46,590 bases of DNA from an uncultured Candidatus Peribacteria bacterium. GTDB lineage: Bacteria > Patescibacteriota > Gracilibacteria > UBA4473. The notes under the pieces were generated by a model. It did no database searches and was not told the DNA's origin. It worked only from the letters and a program-made list of their open reading frames with translations. Both the position numbers and the translations under genes were made by a program. Within the stretch, counting starts at the first letter, position 1. Every line of letters begins with the position of its first letter. The stretch covers positions 1 through 46,590 of the forward strand of contig CAYFMH010000002.1 of the NCBI GenBank assembly GCA_964344165.1, read 5' to 3'. Positions 19,147-26,991 of this stretch are shown piece by piece.

Positions 19147-20115
19147 CTAATTTAGTGGAAAAGTTGTCTCCATCTTTTCCAAATAATCCAAATCTTTTTG
19201 TATCCGTGCCTGTAGATCTTCGAGGATTTTTTTGTTGTTTGGTTTGAGCAGGTGTTTTGTCCTCCCCTGCATTTCCAGGAATTCTGCTAGTTTTTCTTCT
19301 GGATTTCGTGGTCGATAGTTGATCTTCCATTTGCCATCATCTACTTCATAGAGCGGCCAAAAATTAGAATCTGTTGCCAGTTGTGAAAGTACCATGCCTT
19401 TCTGCGGATCAGATTTCCAATTGGTCGGACAGACCGAAAAACAATTGATAAAAGCCGGTCCTTTCACTTCAAAAGCTCGATGAGCTTTTTTCATCAGATC
19501 AGCAAAATTCGCTGGATTGGCCTGTGCGATATATGGCACGTCATGGGCGGCCAAAATTTTGGTTAAATTTTTTCGTTTTTGGGGTTTTCCAGTGATTTCT
19601 GATCCCACAGGAGTAGTATTAGTTTTAAATCCTGCAGGCGTCGCCCCTGATCTTTGATATCCGGTATTCATGTATCCTTCATTGTCGAAGCAAATATAAA
19701 CAAAATCATGCCCTCTCTCGAGCGCGCCAGAGAGCCACTGAAATCCGATATCATATGTTGCGCCGTCTCCCCCAACGGCAAGGAATTTTATTTTTTTTTG
19801 TGTTTCATTGAGCTTCCCTCGGCGTTTCCAGGACTTCCAGGTGGATTCTACTCCAGAGATGACGCTGGCGGCGTTCTCAAAAAGAGAATGAATCCAGGGG
19901 GTCCGAAAACTGGTGTAGGGATAAGCCCCAAAACAGATCTCAGAGCATCCTGTCGCATTAGCCGTCACGATGGGATTATCGATCGTGGTGAGGGCTTGTT
20001 TCAAAATCACGGAGATTCCACATCCTGGACAAAGTCGATGTCCAGAAGCGAGTCTCTGTGGAGATTGTGAAACCACTTTGAGATTTGGGATAAAAGGTTT
20101 ATTTTTATCAGCCAT
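19147..20115 (-). CDS. porB: 2-oxoacid (pyruvate):ferredoxin oxidoreductase beta subunit
   Basis: CPGCG, TPP-binding GGDGATYDIGFQ, CFDNEGYMNTGYQ, WPLYEV tail. Confidence 0.9.
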   Translation of the reverse strand: MADKNKPFIPNLKVVSQSPQRLASGHRLCPGCGISVILKQALTTIDNPIVTANATGCSEICFGAYPYTSFRTPWIHSLFENAASVISGVESTWKSWKRRGKLNETQKKIKFLAVGGDGATYDIGFQWLSGALERGHDFVYICFDNEGYMNTGYQRSGATPAGFKTNTTPVGSEITGKPQKRKNLTKILAAHDVPYIAQANPANFADLMKKAHRAFEVKGPAFINCFSVCPTNWKSDPQKGMVLSQLATDSNFWPLYEVDDGKWKINYRPRNPEEKLAEFLEMQGRTKHLLKPNNKKILEDLQARIQKDLDYLEKMETTFPLN

Positions 20116-20156
20116 TTCGGATTCAATATAATGTATTTGTGGATTTTTAAAATCTT

Positions 20157-21941
20157 TTATTTCCCAATCACCGCTTTTATCCGTCGTACCCCCCGACTAG
20201 AGCTTTCTTCTTTTTTGATTTTAAAAGATTTAAGATTTCCAGTTCGTGCGGTGTGAGGGCCGCCGCAGATTTCTTTTGAAAATTCGCCCATGGTGAAGAC
20301 CTTCACTTGGTCTCCGTATTTACTTTCAAAAAGGCCAATCGCACCGGCTGATTTTGCCTCATCAACACTCATTTCTGCACAAGTGATTTCTGCATTCGCG
20401 GTGATAGCTTCATTGACCAGTCGTTCTACTTCTTCTTTTTGTTCTGGCGTCATTTTGTCCTCATGAGAGAAATCAAATCGGAGTCGTTCTGGTGTGATGT
20501 TTGACCCTCGTTGTTCGACGTGGTCGCCAAGCACCTTCTTTAGTGCGGCATGGAGGAGGTGGGTAGCTGTATGGAGTTTGGCTTCTTCTTCTGATCCTCC
20601 GGCGAGTCCTCCCGCAAATTTCTTTTCTGATCCAGCTCGAGATTTGGCTTGATGGGCTTCGTATGACTTTTGGAATTCCGCACCGTCGACTTTGATCCCT
20701 TTTTCGGCGGCAAGTTCTTCTGTGATCTCGAGTGGAAATCCATACGTCTCGTAGAGGAAGAAAGCCTTGTCTCCGGCGATGTGGCCTTCACATTTTTCTG
20801 CAATTTTTTCGAACTCTCGTTCTCCCGCGACAAGCGTTTTTCGGAATTGATCTTCTTCTCTGGTGAGCTCTTCGAGGATGAATTTTTCGTTGGATTTGAT
20901 CTCTGGATAGTGGGATCCAAGTTTTTTGATCGCGGCTTCGGCTATCGGGACACAGAGGTTTTTGGCTACCCCGATTTTTCGTCCATGACGAATCGCTCGA
21001 CGAAGGAGACGTCGCAAAATATATCCCTGATCCATATTTGAGGGAGAAACGTTATCTGCCAAGATTACGGTAGCACTTCGGATGTGGTCGGCGATGATCC
21101 GGGCAGAGGCATGAATGTCTGATTCTCCAATCGGATCATCCGCTACTTCAGAATGCCCAGAAATTTCCGCAATCTTTGCCAAAATATCCGTAAACGCATC
21201 GGTTTGGTAGACAGATTTCATTCCGTTGAGGATAAATACCGTTCTCTCAAGTCCCATCCCGGTGTCGATGTTTCGAGAGGGGAGTTCTTCGAGCTGTCCG
21301 GTCTCAGTTTTATTAAACTGCATGAAGACGTCATTCCAAATCTCAACCCACCGGTCATCATCGGTGGTGTCTTGAAAGCTTTCTGGGGCTGGCCCGTCAC
21401 CGGTCCAGTAGAACATTTCCGTGTCTGGACCGCACGGTCCTATCTCTCCTTTTGCCCACCAGTTGTCTTCTTTTCCTAGATAGGCGATACGATTTTTTGG
21501 CATACCGAGATCTTCCCATATTTTGGCCGATTCTTCGTCTCGTGGGGCATCGGCATCTCCGGCGAAGACCGATACGGCGAGTTTTTCAAGCGGGAGTTCG
21601 AGTGTTTTGGTCAAAAATTCAAAAGACCACGGAATCTGTTCGGCTTTGAAGTAATCTCCGAGCGACCAGTTTCCGAGCATTTCAAAAAAGGTCAGATGCG
21701 TCGCATCTCCAACTTCTTCGATGTCTCCGGTTCGGATACATTTCTGAGCATTGGCCAGACGATTACTCGCCGGATGAGGTTCTCCCATAAGGAAAGGAAC
21801 CAATGGATGCATCCCTGAGTTAATAAAAAGCGCCGTCGGGTCATTATCCGGGATGACGGCAGCACTGGGGATCACGGTGTGTTCTTGAGCTTTCCAAAAT
21901 GCAAGCCATTTTTTTCGAAGAGAGTCGGTGGTGTAATTCAT
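20157..21941 (-). CDS. alaS: Alanine--tRNA ligase, short form lacking the C-Ala domain
   Basis: FINSGMHPLVPF, HLTFFEMLGNWSLGDYFK, editing-domain HTATHLLH and CGGPH. The protein ends at 594 aa just after the editing domain. Confidence 0.92.
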   Translation of the reverse strand: MNYTTDSLRKKWLAFWKAQEHTVIPSAAVIPDNDPTALFINSGMHPLVPFLMGEPHPASNRLANAQKCIRTGDIEEVGDATHLTFFEMLGNWSLGDYFKAEQIPWSFEFLTKTLELPLEKLAVSVFAGDADAPRDEESAKIWEDLGMPKNRIAYLGKEDNWWAKGEIGPCGPDTEMFYWTGDGPAPESFQDTTDDDRWVEIWNDVFMQFNKTETGQLEELPSRNIDTGMGLERTVFILNGMKSVYQTDAFTDILAKIAEISGHSEVADDPIGESDIHASARIIADHIRSATVILADNVSPSNMDQGYILRRLLRRAIRHGRKIGVAKNLCVPIAEAAIKKLGSHYPEIKSNEKFILEELTREEDQFRKTLVAGEREFEKIAEKCEGHIAGDKAFFLYETYGFPLEITEELAAEKGIKVDGAEFQKSYEAHQAKSRAGSEKKFAGGLAGGSEEEAKLHTATHLLHAALKKVLGDHVEQRGSNITPERLRFDFSHEDKMTPEQKEEVERLVNEAITANAEITCAEMSVDEAKSAGAIGLFESKYGDQVKVFTMGEFSKEICGGPHTARTGNLKSFKIKKEESSSRGVRRIKAVIGK

Positions 21942-22040
21942 TTTGTTTTTTTAAAAAAAATCCAAATAACAAATATCAAATTCCAAACAAATTTCAATAA
22001 AGAATTTTAAAACTAAGAACTAAGAACGAAAAACTAACAA

Positions 22041-22490
22041 CTATTTATAAAATACCCGAATCGCTCGATCTCGTCCTTCTCCCTCTGAGTCAGATGTGAG
22101 CTGTGGGTATTCGGTGGCGATCCAGGAGTGGATGATTCGTCGGTAGTAGGCGCTCATTGGCGGCAATTTGGTTTCAGACAAGTTTCGTTCTTCCATCATT
22201 TTGATGTAGTCTCGGACTTTGTTGATCATTTTGTCTTCTTGGGATTTTTTGTATCCATCGACATCGAGGCTTACAAAAACTCGTTCTTCGTTTTGTTCCC
22301 AGAGGATATTTTTAAGTATTGTTTGAAGCGCTTGAAGAGAAGCTCCGTTTCGCCCGATTAGGCGGCCTGGATCTTCTGTCTCGATATTAGCTCGATAGTG
22401 GCCGTTTTCTTCAGAAACCGTGACACAGTCGTAGCTCGCTCCAAATTTGTCGAGGAGGATTTTGAGGGCTTTTTGAATAATTGTTTCCAT
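22041..22490 (-). CDS. Jag/KhpB-like RNA-binding protein (KH + R3H)
   Basis: KH GxxG motif GRLIGRNGASLQALQ. R3H-type motif LPPMSAYYRRIIHSWI. Confidence 0.8.
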   Translation of the reverse strand: METIIQKALKILLDKFGASYDCVTVSEENGHYRANIETEDPGRLIGRNGASLQALQTILKNILWEQNEERVFVSLDVDGYKKSQEDKMINKVRDYIKMMEERNLSETKLPPMSAYYRRIIHSWIATEYPQLTSDSEGEGRDRAIRVFYK

Positions 22491-22681
22491 CGAGGGTGGA
22501 GTGTATGATTTTTTGGATAATGGTCAAGCAGGCTTTGGATTTTATAAAGTTTTAACAACAAACAGTTACTAACAACCAACCAACAACAAAGGAAAATTAT
22601 TATAGAAGATGTAGTGGTTGAGTTTGTTTCTTATGTGTTTTTAATTTGCGAAAAACGTGTTTTTGGGATAAAAGGGAGGTG

Positions 22682-22954
22682 ATGACAGAAGAAAAATTAA
22701 ATCAGCTTCGGGAAAAAATAAATGAATTGGATGCCCAGATTTTAGAAATTTTAACTGAACGGATGAAATGCTCTCTCGAGGTGGGGAAAACAAAAAAAGA
22801 AATGGAAATGCCGATTTTTGATCCTCAGCGAGAGGCGGATCATCTTTCTGAATTGGTTCAGGCAGGGGCAAGAGAAGGGATTTCTGAGGTTTTCATCCGG
22901 ATGCTCTGGGCGCAGATTATGGAAGAATCACGAAGGGTTCAGAATGAACACTAA
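22682..22954 (+). CDS. Chorismate mutase (AroQ class)
   Basis: LNQLREKINELDAQILEILTERMKCSLEVGKTKKE...PIFDPQREADHL. The ATG at 22682 is preferred over the TTG at 22646. Confidence 0.85.
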   Translation: MTEEKLNQLREKINELDAQILEILTERMKCSLEVGKTKKEMEMPIFDPQREADHLSELVQAGAREGISEVFIRMLWAQIMEESRRVQNEH

Positions 22955-23058
22955 ACTTTAATTTTCAATCTTCAATTATCAATTTTCAAACAATTTCTAA
23001 TATTTAATTTTCAATTTCCAAAAACGAAAAACGAAGTTCGAATAACAAAAAACGAAAT

Positions 23059-23817
23059 ATGTTAAAAGTTAAAGATCTCCATGCCACGCATCAAGATACC
23101 GAGATTCTTCGGGGGATTGATCTGGAGGTGAATCCCGGAGAGCTACATGTGATCCTGGGACCAAATGGATCAGGGAAATCGACCTTTGGGCGGATGCTTT
23201 TGGGAGACAAAAAATTTGAGTTAAAAAAAGGAGGTATTGAATTTGAGGGAAAAAATTTGGAAGAATTATCGACGGCGGAGCGAGCGAAGTTGGGGATTTT
23301 CCTTAGTTTTCAGTCGCCTCCAGAACTGGATGGAGTGAAGGTCAAAGAATTCCTTTTTGCAGCCAAAAAATCAACCGATAAATCGACCACTTCTCAGTTT
23401 CGGTTTAAGCGAGAACTATCAGAAAAATGCACCGAAAATCGACTCGAGTCGTCGGTGGTGGAGCGAGAAGTGAACAAGGGGTTTTCTGGAGGGGAGCGAA
23501 AAAAGTTGGAAATGACCACTTTGTTAACTTTACGACCAAAGCTCGCTTTTCTCGATGAGATTGACTCGGGGGTGGATGTAGATACGGTGCGGATTCTCGC
23601 TCGGGGGATTCGGGATTTCATGGTCGATAAGTCTCGCGCGATGATCATTGTTTCTCACTCGGAGAAGATTTTGAAAGAAATTGTTCCAACACGAGTTCAT
23701 ATTTTTTGTCAGGGGAAGATTATCCGGTCAGGAGGAGCTGAGATTATTGAGAAGGTACATGTAGATGGATTTGATTCGTTTTTGCCCCAGATGGAAGGTT
23801 TTAGAGTTTTGAAATGA
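23059..23817 (+). CDS. sufC: Fe-S cluster assembly ATPase SufC
   Basis: LKVKDLHA, GPNGSGKST, FSGGERKKLEM, LAFLDEIDSGVDVD, IVSH. 252 aa. Confidence 0.93.
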   Translation: MLKVKDLHATHQDTEILRGIDLEVNPGELHVILGPNGSGKSTFGRMLLGDKKFELKKGGIEFEGKNLEELSTAERAKLGIFLSFQSPPELDGVKVKEFLFAAKKSTDKSTTSQFRFKRELSEKCTENRLESSVVEREVNKGFSGGERKKLEMTTLLTLRPKLAFLDEIDSGVDVDTVRILARGIRDFMVDKSRAMIIVSHSEKILKEIVPTRVHIFCQGKIIRSGGAEIIEKVHVDGFDSFLPQMEGFRVLK

Positions 23818-24566
23818 GTAATCCAAAAATTGATTTCTAAAATCTCTCCAAACTCGACCTCGAGAAGGCCGACGACCAGTCCTATGTGGGGAAGTATGAA
23901 AAAGGTGTCTTAAAAAACTGGTCCCAGATTTTTGGCGGGTGAAGAAGAACCATTTTGGGTGTTTGGACATCGGTTGAAAGCCCTAAAAAAAATTTCACGA
24001 AATACCCATGCCTACCTGGGGACCAGATATTGCCAGACTGGATGTGAATCAAATCTATTTTTTTTGCTTCAGCTAGTGATCGCACTTTGTCTTGTCGAAC
24101 GAAGCTTTTTAATTACTTGAAAGTCTAGCTGAGCTAGTCCAAGAAGTTAGCATTTAGGGCAGACTGAAAAAACTTGGTTTATACAAAAAGTGAATGGTTG
24201 TTCTTGTGGATCTCTGATCCCCCGAACTCGACTTGTTGGGAGAGCAAGCGGGGGCGGGGATGACAAAGCAGGGGGGATTAACAATTTAGCCCAGCTTCTC
24301 TTAGTTTTTCTCGTCTTTTTCGAGCCTTGCCCTTGTTATCACGCTTAGCAAGGGTAGATTTTTTTCGTCGTTCGTTGATCTCGTGTCCTCCATGTCGCCG
24401 GCAAGTCGATCGATTTGTCATTTTTTTAGGATAAAATTCGGACCGGAGTGTAATAAGAGTGTTTTTTTTGTCAAATACTGAAAAATAAAAATTCCGCATT
24501 CTACATTCCGCGTTCCGAATTTTTTGAAATTGGTTGACATTTATCACTTTTTTAACAAAATCTCGG
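23814..24566 (+). pseudogene. sufB: Eroded, 3'-truncated sufB pseudogene
   Basis: The ATG overlaps the sufC TGA (ATGA) and a TAA follows after 8 codons. SufB motif remnants are then scattered over three frames with in-frame stops: EEPFWVFGHRLKAL; MPTWGPDIARLDVNQIYFF (24008-24064); LFNYLKV*LS*SKKLA (24105-); SPELDLLG (24218-); GDDKAGGINN (24256-24285); PLLSRLARVDFFRRSLIS (about 24330-24383); NWLTFITFLTKSR (24528-24566). Confidence 0.75.
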
Positions 24567-24585
24567 CAATTAATTTATCCTCAAG

Positions 24586-24915
24586 ATGACTCATTCTGAC
24601 GATTTTCTCATTCAGATCCAAAAAACCGAAAAAGAAGCCGCAGACACTATCGAAAAAGCCAAATCCAAGGCCAAACAAGCAATCGAAAAGGAAAAACGAA
24701 AGCAAGAGGTGGATTTGGCAGAAACAATGAAAAAGGAGCGAACTCATTCACGAGACAAGCTCAAAGAAGCTCAGATCAAGGCTCGAAAGTTGTATGAAGA
24801 TAAAACCACAGAGGGAAAACAAAACGCTCAAAAGCTAGAAAAAGAAGCCGAGGGAAAGATAGAAAAAGTGGTACCGACGGCCGAGGTTTTCTTTTTGAAT
24901 GAGATTCTTGGATAG
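24586..24915 (+). CDS. V/A-type ATPase peripheral-stalk subunit (NtpF/AtpH-like), coiled-coil
   Basis: 109 aa, K/E/A-rich helix (IQKTEKEAADTIEKAKSKAKQAIEKEK). Sits directly upstream of subunit I, as in ntpF-ntpI operons. Confidence 0.55.
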   Translation: MTHSDDFLIQIQKTEKEAADTIEKAKSKAKQAIEKEKRKQEVDLAETMKKERTHSRDKLKEAQIKARKLYEDKTTEGKQNAQKLEKEAEGKIEKVVPTAEVFFLNEILG

Positions 24916-24993
24916 AATCTTCAATTATCAATCTTCAATTAGGAATTATGGAATTTTACTAAGAACGAAAAACTAAAAACTAACAACTAATTT

Positions 24994-26991
24994 ATGGCAA
25001 AAGTTGCACTTCAAAAAATCAGAATCACGGGATACAAAAAACACTACAAGATCCTCATGCAGGAACTACATCGATCTGGGGTCGTAGAGATTATAGAAAA
25101 TTCAGAACTGGTTCAGCAGTCAGAAACCGAAGTAGATCAGCACTTTGGAGTTTTTGACCTGGCGAGAGTTGATTTTGCGATTCATTTTCTCTCAGAATAC
25201 GCTCCCAAGGGATCAAAAATTGATAATATTTTGTCTGGGGGTAAGCTCGTGCTCTCGGAAGAAGAGGCCAAAAATCGGCTCCAGGAATTTGCTCCAAAAT
25301 CAGAAAAGCTCATCACTGAATGTGAGCGATGCGAAGAAGAGCTTGTCAAATCAAAGAATGAATTGGCCAAAATCCCAGAAAAACGAGAATTACTGGGCAA
25401 GCTTGGTAAATTTAATCTTCCGGTGCAGGCTGATTATTCGACTCAGTTTACCAAAACCTGGGTGGGAGCGATCAAATTGGTCGATGAGCCCGCGTTTTTG
25501 TCGGAGGTTTCTCGAGAATCCAACTTGTTGGACCTGCAGATCCTCTCCCGGGGCAAAAAACAAACCTACATTCGGTTGACCGTGCTCAAAGAACTCGAAT
25601 CCCCAACGGCCAAATTACTCGAAAAATTTCAGTTTGAATCGCTTGATCTCTTGTCTCAGTTGGCTGATTTTATCGAAAAAACTCCGATGGAGATCGAGGC
25701 AGAACTAGAAAAAATAGAAGCTCGACTTCGGGCTCGGATCGTAACCCTTGAAAAAAAGGCTCGAGAACTCGCAGAGAACCTTGATGAATTCCGAATTCTT
25801 TATGACTATAACCATTGGCGAAAAGTAAAAAATGACCTGCAGTATCAAGTTTTCCGATCACCACATCTTTTTGCTTTTGAGGGATGGATTCCGGAGGCGG
25901 AGTATGCCAAGCTCGAAAAATGGCTGCAGAATGCTTTTGTCGGAGAAGCGATTATCGAAAAAATAGCCCTCAAAAAAGGGGAAGAGGCCCCGGTTTTACT
26001 CAAAAATATGAAAGGGGTTTCTTCTTTTGAACCAATCATTGGGATGTTTGGAGTGCCAAAGATCAAGGAGTTTGATCCGACGATTTTTATGGCGCCATTT
26101 TTTATGGTCTTTTTTGGACTTTGTCTGTCTGATGTGGGATACGGAGGAATTTTGACACTTTTTGCCGCGTGGTTACTTGTTTTTGGGAAATTTTCAAAAG
26201 CTGCGAAAAATGCTTTATTTTTACTTTTTATTTGTGGGATCGCAGCGATTTTGGGAGGCGTTGTTTTGGGTGGGTATTTTGGTCTTACGACTGAGCAAGC
26301 GCCTGTTTTTCTTCTCAACGAAGCCGGAGCCTTCCGCGGACAGTTACTTGATCCGATGGTGGGGACGGGGCCCGTTCTCTTCCTAGGAATCGCTCTGGGA
26401 CTCGGGTTGATCCAGCTTTTTTTGGGGCTTATTTTGGACTTCGTCAAAAGAGTGATGAATCGAGAATACATCGATGCGGTATGTGATCCAGGAGCGTGGT
26501 TTTTCTTTCTGGCTACGTTGGTGCTTTATGGAGGGGCTGATTACATCGGGATTTCTAAGGATTTGGCTGGGAAATTAGCGCTTGCTGGGGCTGGAATTTT
26601 AGTTCTCACCCAGGGACGAGATCAAAAAAACTGGCTACTCAAACCGGTCTTTGGAATTCTTGGGCTCTACAACATCACGTCATATCTCTCTGATCTGCTC
26701 AGTTATTCACGTATCATGGCGCTGGGGCTGGCCACGGGAGTGGTTGGATTTGCAATGAATATTACCGCAGGGATTTTGGCAGACATGATCACGATTCCAG
26801 TAGTGGGGACGTTGGTCGCTATTTTTGTGATCCTCTTTGGACACACGCTCAATTTTTGCCTCTCGATATTGGGGGCCTTCATCCACTCTGGTCGTCTACA
26901 ATTTATTGAGTTTTTTGGAAAGTTTTATGAAGGAGGAGGACGAGAATTTCGTCCATTTAAGCGGGCGATGAAGTATTTGCATTTTGAATAA
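24994..26991 (+). CDS. ntpI: V/A-type ATPase subunit I (a-subunit, membrane stator)
   Basis: 665 aa. N-terminal cytoplasmic coiled-coil domain. C-terminal polytopic domain with YSRIMALGLATGVV and RLQFIEFFGKFYEGGGREFRPF. Confidence 0.88.
   Translation: MAKVALQKIRITGYKKHYKILMQELHRSGVVEIIENSELVQQSETEVDQHFGVFDLARVDFAIHFLSEYAPKGSKIDNILSGGKLVLSEEEAKNRLQEFAPKSEKLITECERCEEELVKSKNELAKIPEKRELLGKLGKFNLPVQADYSTQFTKTWVGAIKLVDEPAFLSEVSRESNLLDLQILSRGKKQTYIRLTVLKELESPTAKLLEKFQFESLDLLSQLADFIEKTPMEIEAELEKIEARLRARIVTLEKKARELAENLDEFRILYDYNHWRKVKNDLQYQVFRSPHLFAFEGWIPEAEYAKLEKWLQNAFVGEAIIEKIALKKGEEAPVLLKNMKGVSSFEPIIGMFGVPKIKEFDPTIFMAPFFMVFFGLCLSDVGYGGILTLFAAWLLVFGKFSKAAKNALFLLFICGIAAILGGVVLGGYFGLTTEQAPVFLLNEAGAFRGQLLDPMVGTGPVLFLGIALGLGLIQLFLGLILDFVKRVMNREYIDAVCDPGAWFFFLATLVLYGGADYIGISKDLAGKLALAGAGILVLTQGRDQKNWLLKPVFGILGLYNITSYLSDLLSYSRIMALGLATGVVGFAMNITAGILADMITIPVVGTLVAIFVILFGHTLNFCLSILGAFIHSGRLQFIEFFGKFYEGGGREFRPFKRAMKYLHFE

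Follow-up and report, generated by a model that had tools for sequence, protein, structure and literature searches.

A stretch of 46,590 nucleotides (nt) from an uncultured Candidatus Peribacteria bacterium, referred to throughout as the window, carries directly behind an intact sufC gene a remnant of the lineage's original sufB, namely its non-functional 5′ end, still in its native place. The relic lies at 23814–24085 on the plus strand and retains codons 1 to ~103 of the 468 of sufB, a gene whose product belongs to the SufBC2D iron–sulfur (Fe–S) scaffold. The ~500 nt that follow the relic are unrelated to sufB; they comprise a spacer that includes a small repeat, a minus-strand gene of 47 codons and divergent promoter-like sites. 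The window is the entire 46.6-kb contig C2 of a genome bin of 1.69 Mb in 125 contigs (G000), and an intact sufB followed by a short sufD is found on another contig of this bin, C5. We consider it highly probable that the relic of the original sufB remained in place and that the working sufB–sufD pair came to lie at C5 through a history of insertion or duplication and rearrangement. The relic itself is an ordinary pseudogene scar: its kind is known, this instance has not been described previously, and a search of the literature found no paper on a sufB pseudogene.

The sufB relic behind sufC

The sufC gene (23059–23817, plus strand) encodes 252 amino acids (aa) in an intact frame with no stops, and its product scores 266.8 bits against the SufC equivalog model TIGR01978, exceeding the cut-off of 212.8. 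A tblastn search over the whole genome found no second sufC, and the window gene is the sole copy. Thirty-one genomes were searched for comparison; the sister species is represented by G001, an uncultured Candidatus Peribacteria metagenome-assembled genome (MAG), the SufC protein of which is 87% identical to that of the window, with a ratio of nonsynonymous to synonymous substitution (dN/dS) of 0.07. As had been proposed in a first-pass annotation of the window, the TGA of sufC overlaps an ATG at 23814 (ATGA), and the frame that opens there ends after eight codons (MSNPKIDF*) at a TAA at 23838–23840. Between 23817 and the V-ATPase subunit H-like gene that begins at 24586, there is no long open reading frame (ORF). 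The identical ATGA overlap is present in the relative G012, where sufC and sufB are contiguous, and in several relatives the sufB start abuts or overlaps the sufC stop; the stub behind the window sufC is hence the original gene and has kept its original position.

When the genome's own SufB is used as the query, tblastn matches residues 16–104 to window positions 23820–24086 across stops (E 2e-14). At the DNA level, blastn aligns window 23821–24080 with codons 16–103 of the C5 sufB, with 198 of 265 bases identical (75%, E 3e-46). A local DNA alignment of the relic with sufB scores 119, compared with 11 ± 1.4 in shuffled sequences, while a frameshift-tolerant protein-to-DNA alignment scores 287, compared with 34 ± 5 in 100 shuffles. 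The best-preserved block is NLSKLDLEKADDQSYVGKYEKG (23841–23906), which is absent from the list of SufB remnants in the first-pass annotation. The homology breaks off sharply at ~24080–24086, corresponding to codon ~103, leaving ~22% of sufB in the window; the remaining ~78% (about 365 codons) is missing, and not the C-terminal third or so that had been estimated.

In addition to this truncation, the relic is disabled by one nonsense codon and three frameshifts (−2, +1 and +1), all located by alignment on the plus strand. An in-frame TAA at 23838–23840 stands where the intact copies have CAA (Gln). A net 2-nt deletion shifts the frame within 23907–23940, where 49 nt, with bases counted by hand, correspond to 51 nt in the intact gene. 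The two +1 frameshifts lie in a run of eight A residues (A8, 23985–23992) and a run of eight T residues (T8, 24058–24065). Given the nonsense codon and the three frameshifts, the relic cannot encode the scaffold protein. Like sufB in sufCBD operons, the relic occupies the position behind sufC and has a start that overlaps the sufC stop, and it is homologous to the N-terminal ~100 residues of canonical SufB (TIGR01980, PF01458); unlike canonical SufB, it is devoid of the SUFBD_core β-helix domain and the C-terminal region. When all six frames of the genome were searched with SUFBD_core (PF01458), C5 alone gave matches, and none fell on the window contig at E ≤ 10. Similarity to SufB was found for 23814–24085 only, and no uninterrupted frame of ~470 codons is present.

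The first-pass annotation had read the whole of 23814–24566, some 750 nt, as a single heavily eroded sufB with seven ordered remnants running to QNW..NFVTKRA, and had taken this as a sign that the SUF pathway was being lost. The placing of a sufB pseudogene right after an intact sufC stands for 23814–24085 and fails for the remainder of the interval, where there is no signal above shuffles; the genuine feature has roughly a third of the length that had been proposed. Two of the seven blocks, EEPFWVFGHRLKAL and MPTWGPDIARLDVNQIYFF, are genuine sufB inside the aligned relic, and brief motif likenesses are legible by eye further downstream; to this extent the longer reading has support. The other five blocks are chance matches. 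GDDKAGGINN and PLLSRLARVDFFRRSLIS fall on the conserved 47-codon gene of the minus strand and had been read on the wrong strand, and NWLTFITFLTKSR overlaps a promoter-like site before the V-ATPase genes, where the orthologous DNA of the sister species adjoins ATP-binding cassette (ABC) transporter genes, not suf. The frameshift-tolerant alignment to SufB that the annotation had predicted across the interval holds up to ~24085, and across 24086–24585 no SufB similarity rises above shuffled controls. For 24081–24585, the DNA local alignment against sufB gives z = −1.3 and the frameshift-tolerant protein alignment scores 43, compared with 35.8 ± 5, a value equalled or bettered by 11 of 100 shuffles. 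The absence of a SUFBD_core signal from the contig, the purifying selection on the minus-strand gene at 24278–24424, the orthology of 24279–24576 to sister DNA beside ABC-transporter genes and the presence of intact sufB and sufD on C5 all tell against one eroded gene spanning the interval, and we regard that reading as scarcely credible.

The lesions might alternatively be artefacts, with the stops and frameshifts being errors or the contig a chimera, and with a true genome in which sufC, sufB and sufD are contiguous. Two of the frameshifts lie in the A8 and T8 runs and the genome is a fragmented MAG, both of which favour such an explanation. However, two MEGAHIT contigs (from ERR2281802 and ERR2281803) and one Logan contig (from ERR2281803) are 100% identical to the window over 20059–24522, 22464–25321 and 22468–24091, so that two runs and two assemblers agree from sufC through the stub into the small 47-codon gene and the V-ATPase genes. 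As far as tested, these contigs give no sign of the assembly errors that, according to the first-pass annotation, might restore one long ORF. With only 75% identity to the intact sufB and differences at all codon positions, the stub cannot be a mis-join onto the C5 gene. Homopolymer errors do not explain the TAA, the 2-nt deletion or the truncation. Because the TAA, the 2-nt deletion and the loss of ~365 codons remain, the gene is dead even with both homopolymer frameshifts repaired, and an artefact is highly improbable.

Working SUF genes on a second contig

The sole intact sufB in the genome lies at C5:9310–10716, where its product scores 621 bits against TIGR01980 (cut-off 346); the suggestion that a second sufB copy might exist elsewhere in the genome was thus correct. 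It is followed directly by a sufD-like gene of 176–179 aa (C5:10747–11286, the same as L001:2320–2859). The SufD-like protein corresponds to the C-terminal part of SufD and scores 87 bits, under the TIGR01981 cut-off of 222; across the family, this short protein is 50–81% identical. With sufB and sufD intact on C5 and sufC on C2, the SUF pathway is therefore not being lost, contrary to what the first-pass annotation had supposed. Judged by gene content, the SUF system is complete for SufB, SufC and SufD, and sufC would act in trans with the C5 genes. No NifU_N (SufU/IscU-type) scaffold gene was found in the genome. Three class-V aminotransferase (cysteine-desulfurase-like) genes are present, on contigs C8, C15 and C38.

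That C2 and C5 belong together is indicated by their composition (tetranucleotide r = 0.985; GC contents of 40.4% and 41.8%), by the occurrence of both loci in assemblies of the same two samples and by orthologous counterparts of both loci in the sister MAG. Among the contigs of at least 10 kb, at least one is a compositional outlier, with a GC content of 57% and a tetranucleotide correlation of −0.04 with the rest; it is probably contamination of the bin, unrelated to C2 and C5. On Fe–S cluster biosynthesis, the Peribacteria genome paper says only that genes for it are encoded (PMC4736985). In annotation, this organism should be credited with a complete SufBCD set, made up of sufC in the window and sufB–sufD on C5, and not with a loss of SUF; automated pathway calls that require an operon would miss the set.

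Origin and age of the stub

The genes sufC, sufB and sufD are contiguous in five of the genomes searched (G002, G007, G012, G013 and G016), and sufC and sufB are also neighbours in G005, G006, G014 and G017. In four others (G009, G010, G025 and G028), sufC and sufB lie on separate contigs and there are no stubs. The window genome resembles these split suf operons in that sufC is unlinked from sufB, but differs from them in that a recognisable sufB fragment persists at the old junction; a partial sufB match at a second site occurs in this genome alone, one of the 31 searched. The unlinking of sufC and sufB is recurrent in this bacterial class, and the locus provides a small, clean snapshot of a translationally coupled sufC–sufB junction that has been broken in a lineage of the Candidate Phyla Radiation (CPR); no new biology is opened by the relic. 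A search of JGI metagenomes for other strains, with SufC as the query, returned no relative above 48% identity.

In the sister species, the genes run chorismate mutase, sufC, sufB and sufD, with an insert of 2.6 kb between sufC and sufB and without a stub. The insert contains a gene for a 197-aa hypothetical protein, repeats, a RidA fragment, HicB and HicA. On C5, too, sufB is preceded by the hypothetical gene and the repeats; this arrangement, being common to both species, predates their split. Foreign DNA lies directly upstream of the complete sufB in both species, and the homology of the C5 sufB to the stub begins ~6–9 nt after the start codon. There is no stub upstream of the C5 sufB or in G001. 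The flanking genes have exchanged partners: in the sister species, ABC-transporter genes directly adjoin the 47-codon gene and the V-ATPase genes, and in the present genome the same ABC genes adjoin the hypothetical gene, sufB and sufD, while sufC and the stub adjoin the small gene and the V-ATPase genes. An ancestral order in which sufCBD lay beside the small gene and V-ATPase, followed by internal deletion, was considered and rejected, as no outgroup has the small gene or V-ATPase beside sufD.

These arrangements suggest the following history. The common ancestor of this species and its sister would have carried contiguous sufC, sufB and sufD. Extra DNA, comprising a gene for a ~190-aa protein and repeats, would then have been placed before sufB and would have duplicated its first ~270–310 nt. 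Upstream, this would have left a stub that keeps the native junction with sufC, and downstream a complete sufB whose start region is new. Single-crossover (Campbell-type) integration, or tandem duplication followed by deletion, could give rise to such a partial direct duplication flanking an insert. In the sister species, the stub would later have been deleted. In this species, an inversion-like exchange would have carried sufC and the stub away from the inserted gene and from sufBD and placed them next to the small gene and the V-ATPase genes; a single inversion, with breakpoints after sufC (together with the stub) and after the ABC genes, would account for both new junctions. The stub would have been drifting neutrally since approximately the split of the two species.

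The age of the stub bears on this history. A tree of the 267-nt 5′ segment places the stub within the genus clade (ultrafast bootstrap, UFboot, 97) and outside the intact pair (UFboot 73), on a long branch. At the 35 sites that differ between the intact copies, the stub matches C5 at 12, G001 at 15 and neither at 8, so that a recent copy of the C5 gene can be excluded. That the stub arose secondarily, through later copying of part of the C5 sufB to the site behind sufC, is accordingly very unlikely. Ectopic insertion could in principle yield a partial paralogous fragment of this kind, and the region is rich in repeats, but the start of the stub lies exactly at the native translationally coupled ATGA junction found in relatives, and its shared states bring it no closer to C5 than to the sister gene. 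It also keeps outgroup-like residues (YVGKYEKG and MPTWGPD) that have changed in both intact genus copies.

Differences that are specific to the stub, at sites where both intact copies agree, are distributed 25:11:18 over codon positions 1, 2 and 3, compared with 4:2:29 for the differences between the two intact genes. From this pattern, the separate history of the stub looks neutral throughout, and changes at all codon positions, taken together with an equal distance to the intact copies, point to an old, neutrally decaying relic. A long functional coexistence of the stub, considered in view of its dN/dS of 0.17 (NG86) against the intact copy, was rejected because the counts per codon position are not coding-like. 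Between the two species, synonymous divergence (dS) is ~1.1–2.3, near saturation; the stub is thus of long standing, and a more precise date would be unjustified.

Replacement by transfer offers a different route to the same arrangement and is, in our estimation, unlikely. The native sufBD would have remained functional until a sister Peribacteria lineage donated a cassette made up of the hypothetical gene, the repeats, sufB and sufD; the native pair, made redundant, would then have been reduced by deletion to the stub. Consistent with this, the stub is as far from the C5 copy as from the G001 copy, the neighbours of the cassette differ on both sides in the two species, and toxin–antitoxin genes flank the cassette (HicAB in G001, a ParE-containing pair in G000). 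However, the dS of sufB (1.27) is not below that of sufC (1.19) or of the small gene (1.07), giving no sign of transfer after speciation, and the stub branch lacks an excess of third-position changes, so that no phase as a second functional gene is detectable. A transfer also needs more rearrangements than insertion plus inversion.

Several points weigh against the history of insertion, duplication and inversion that we favour. Flanks further out have also been rearranged between the two species, and a single inversion is thus a minimal model. The order of events is tentative: the node that sets the stub apart from the two intact copies has only 73% support on 267 nt, and synonymous divergence between this species and its sister approaches saturation (dS 1.1–2.3). 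The placing of C2 and C5 on one chromosome, in a metagenome bin of 125 contigs, rests on composition, co-occurrence in samples and synteny in the sister MAG. Two of the three frameshifts sit in 8-base homopolymers. It is also possible that the C5 cassette was transferred from a sister lineage and that the native sufBD decayed afterwards.

Among known kinds, the relic resembles truncated pseudogenes left by partial duplication or relocation, such as those that follow single-crossover integration or gene replacement in bacterial genomes. Like these, it is a disabled partial copy at the ancestral position with an intact copy elsewhere, its substitutions look neutral and its homology boundary is abrupt. 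It differs in that the creating event is not identifiable from the sequence, and no mobile-element genes or terminal repeats flank it. A bolder interpretation, which we hold to be doubtful, is that the stub marks a datable event of DNA integration into the genome of a CPR lineage, either a single crossover or a transfer from a sister lineage that re-supplied sufBD, with the native sufC kept. If true, this would be a rare concrete case of gene acquisition mediated by homologous recombination in episymbiont-like bacteria, and the native SufC would have as its partner a SufB/SufD scaffold that is relocated or foreign. A weaker addition to this idea is that the stub may survive in a streamlined genome by serving sufC, as a 3′ untranslated region, a terminator or a coupled 8-codon ORF.

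Two further features of the suf surroundings were observed. Toxin–antitoxin pairs flank the relocated sufB–sufD: HicB/HicA lies directly upstream of sufB in G001 (L023:7130–7589), and in the present genome sufD on C5 is followed directly by a ParE-toxin pair (L169:1373–1866). A repeat located just after the sister sufC (L023:4988–5126) has many copies in G000, on contigs C22, C23, C49, C63, C8, C44, C25 and others; such repeats may act as substrates for rearrangements around suf.

The DNA between the relic and the V-ATPase genes

The relic is followed at 24086–24277 by a spacer that is not derived from sufB. Searches of this spacer against sufD, the inserted genes and the flanks of either species found no match. 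The only match was a 65-nt hairpin-containing element (24207–24271), of which a 75%-identical copy lies in an intergenic position on contig C38 (C38:10121–10184). RNA folding of the spacer is not unusual (z = −1.26), and an Rfam scan of 23700–24700 (E ≤ 10) gave best scores of 9–22 bits, compared with gathering scores of 41–106.

Beyond the spacer, a gene for a basic protein of 47 aa (MTNRSTCRRHGGHEINERRKKS...RREKLR..GLNC), belonging to an unnamed family, is encoded on the minus strand at 24278–24424. The DNA of 24278–24422 is conserved at 77% in the sister species and at 69–71% in three other genera, and the start and stop positions of the gene are kept in all five genomes compared, with protein identities of 62–85% and a dN/dS of 0.07 against the sister species. 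The protein has no match in Pfam or NCBIfam and falls into six database clusters, every one of which is named 'hypothetical protein'. The gene is unannotated and occurs in at least five genomes of the Peribacteria family. The ~500 nt that had been called an eroded gene thus contain a conserved, unannotated 47-aa gene and promoter DNA.

Two promoter-like sites, both recognised by consensus match only, point in opposite directions. The first (TTGACA-16-TACACT, 24447–24474, minus strand) precedes the 47-codon gene, and the second (TTGACA-16-CAAAAT, 24534–24561, plus strand) precedes the V-ATPase genes. Between the two lies an interspersed repeat of ~38 nt (…attccgcattctacattccgcgttccgaatttt…, 24487–24525), copies of which are 82–94% identical and are present on at least seven other contigs (C74, C17, C108, C14, C75, C1 and C92). 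The DNA of 24279–24576 is 77% identical to the region upstream of the V-ATPase genes in the sister species. The neighbouring unit begins with the V-type ATPase subunit H-like gene (24586–24915, plus strand), which is assigned by a weak match to NF006256 (E 3.8e-05) and by its sister ortholog.

In-frame TGA codons were also noted in suf genes of two relatives. In G008, a member of the same family whose genome is 73% complete, sufB is divided between two frames and has an internal TGA (G008:C47:11827–13207), which reflects either pseudogenization by frameshift or an error of assembly. In G028, a relative of the same class, sufC and sufB (contigs C4 and C24) have seven in-frame TGA codons each, consistent with a lineage in which TGA is recoded (code 25-like). 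TGA is a stop codon in the window's own genome.

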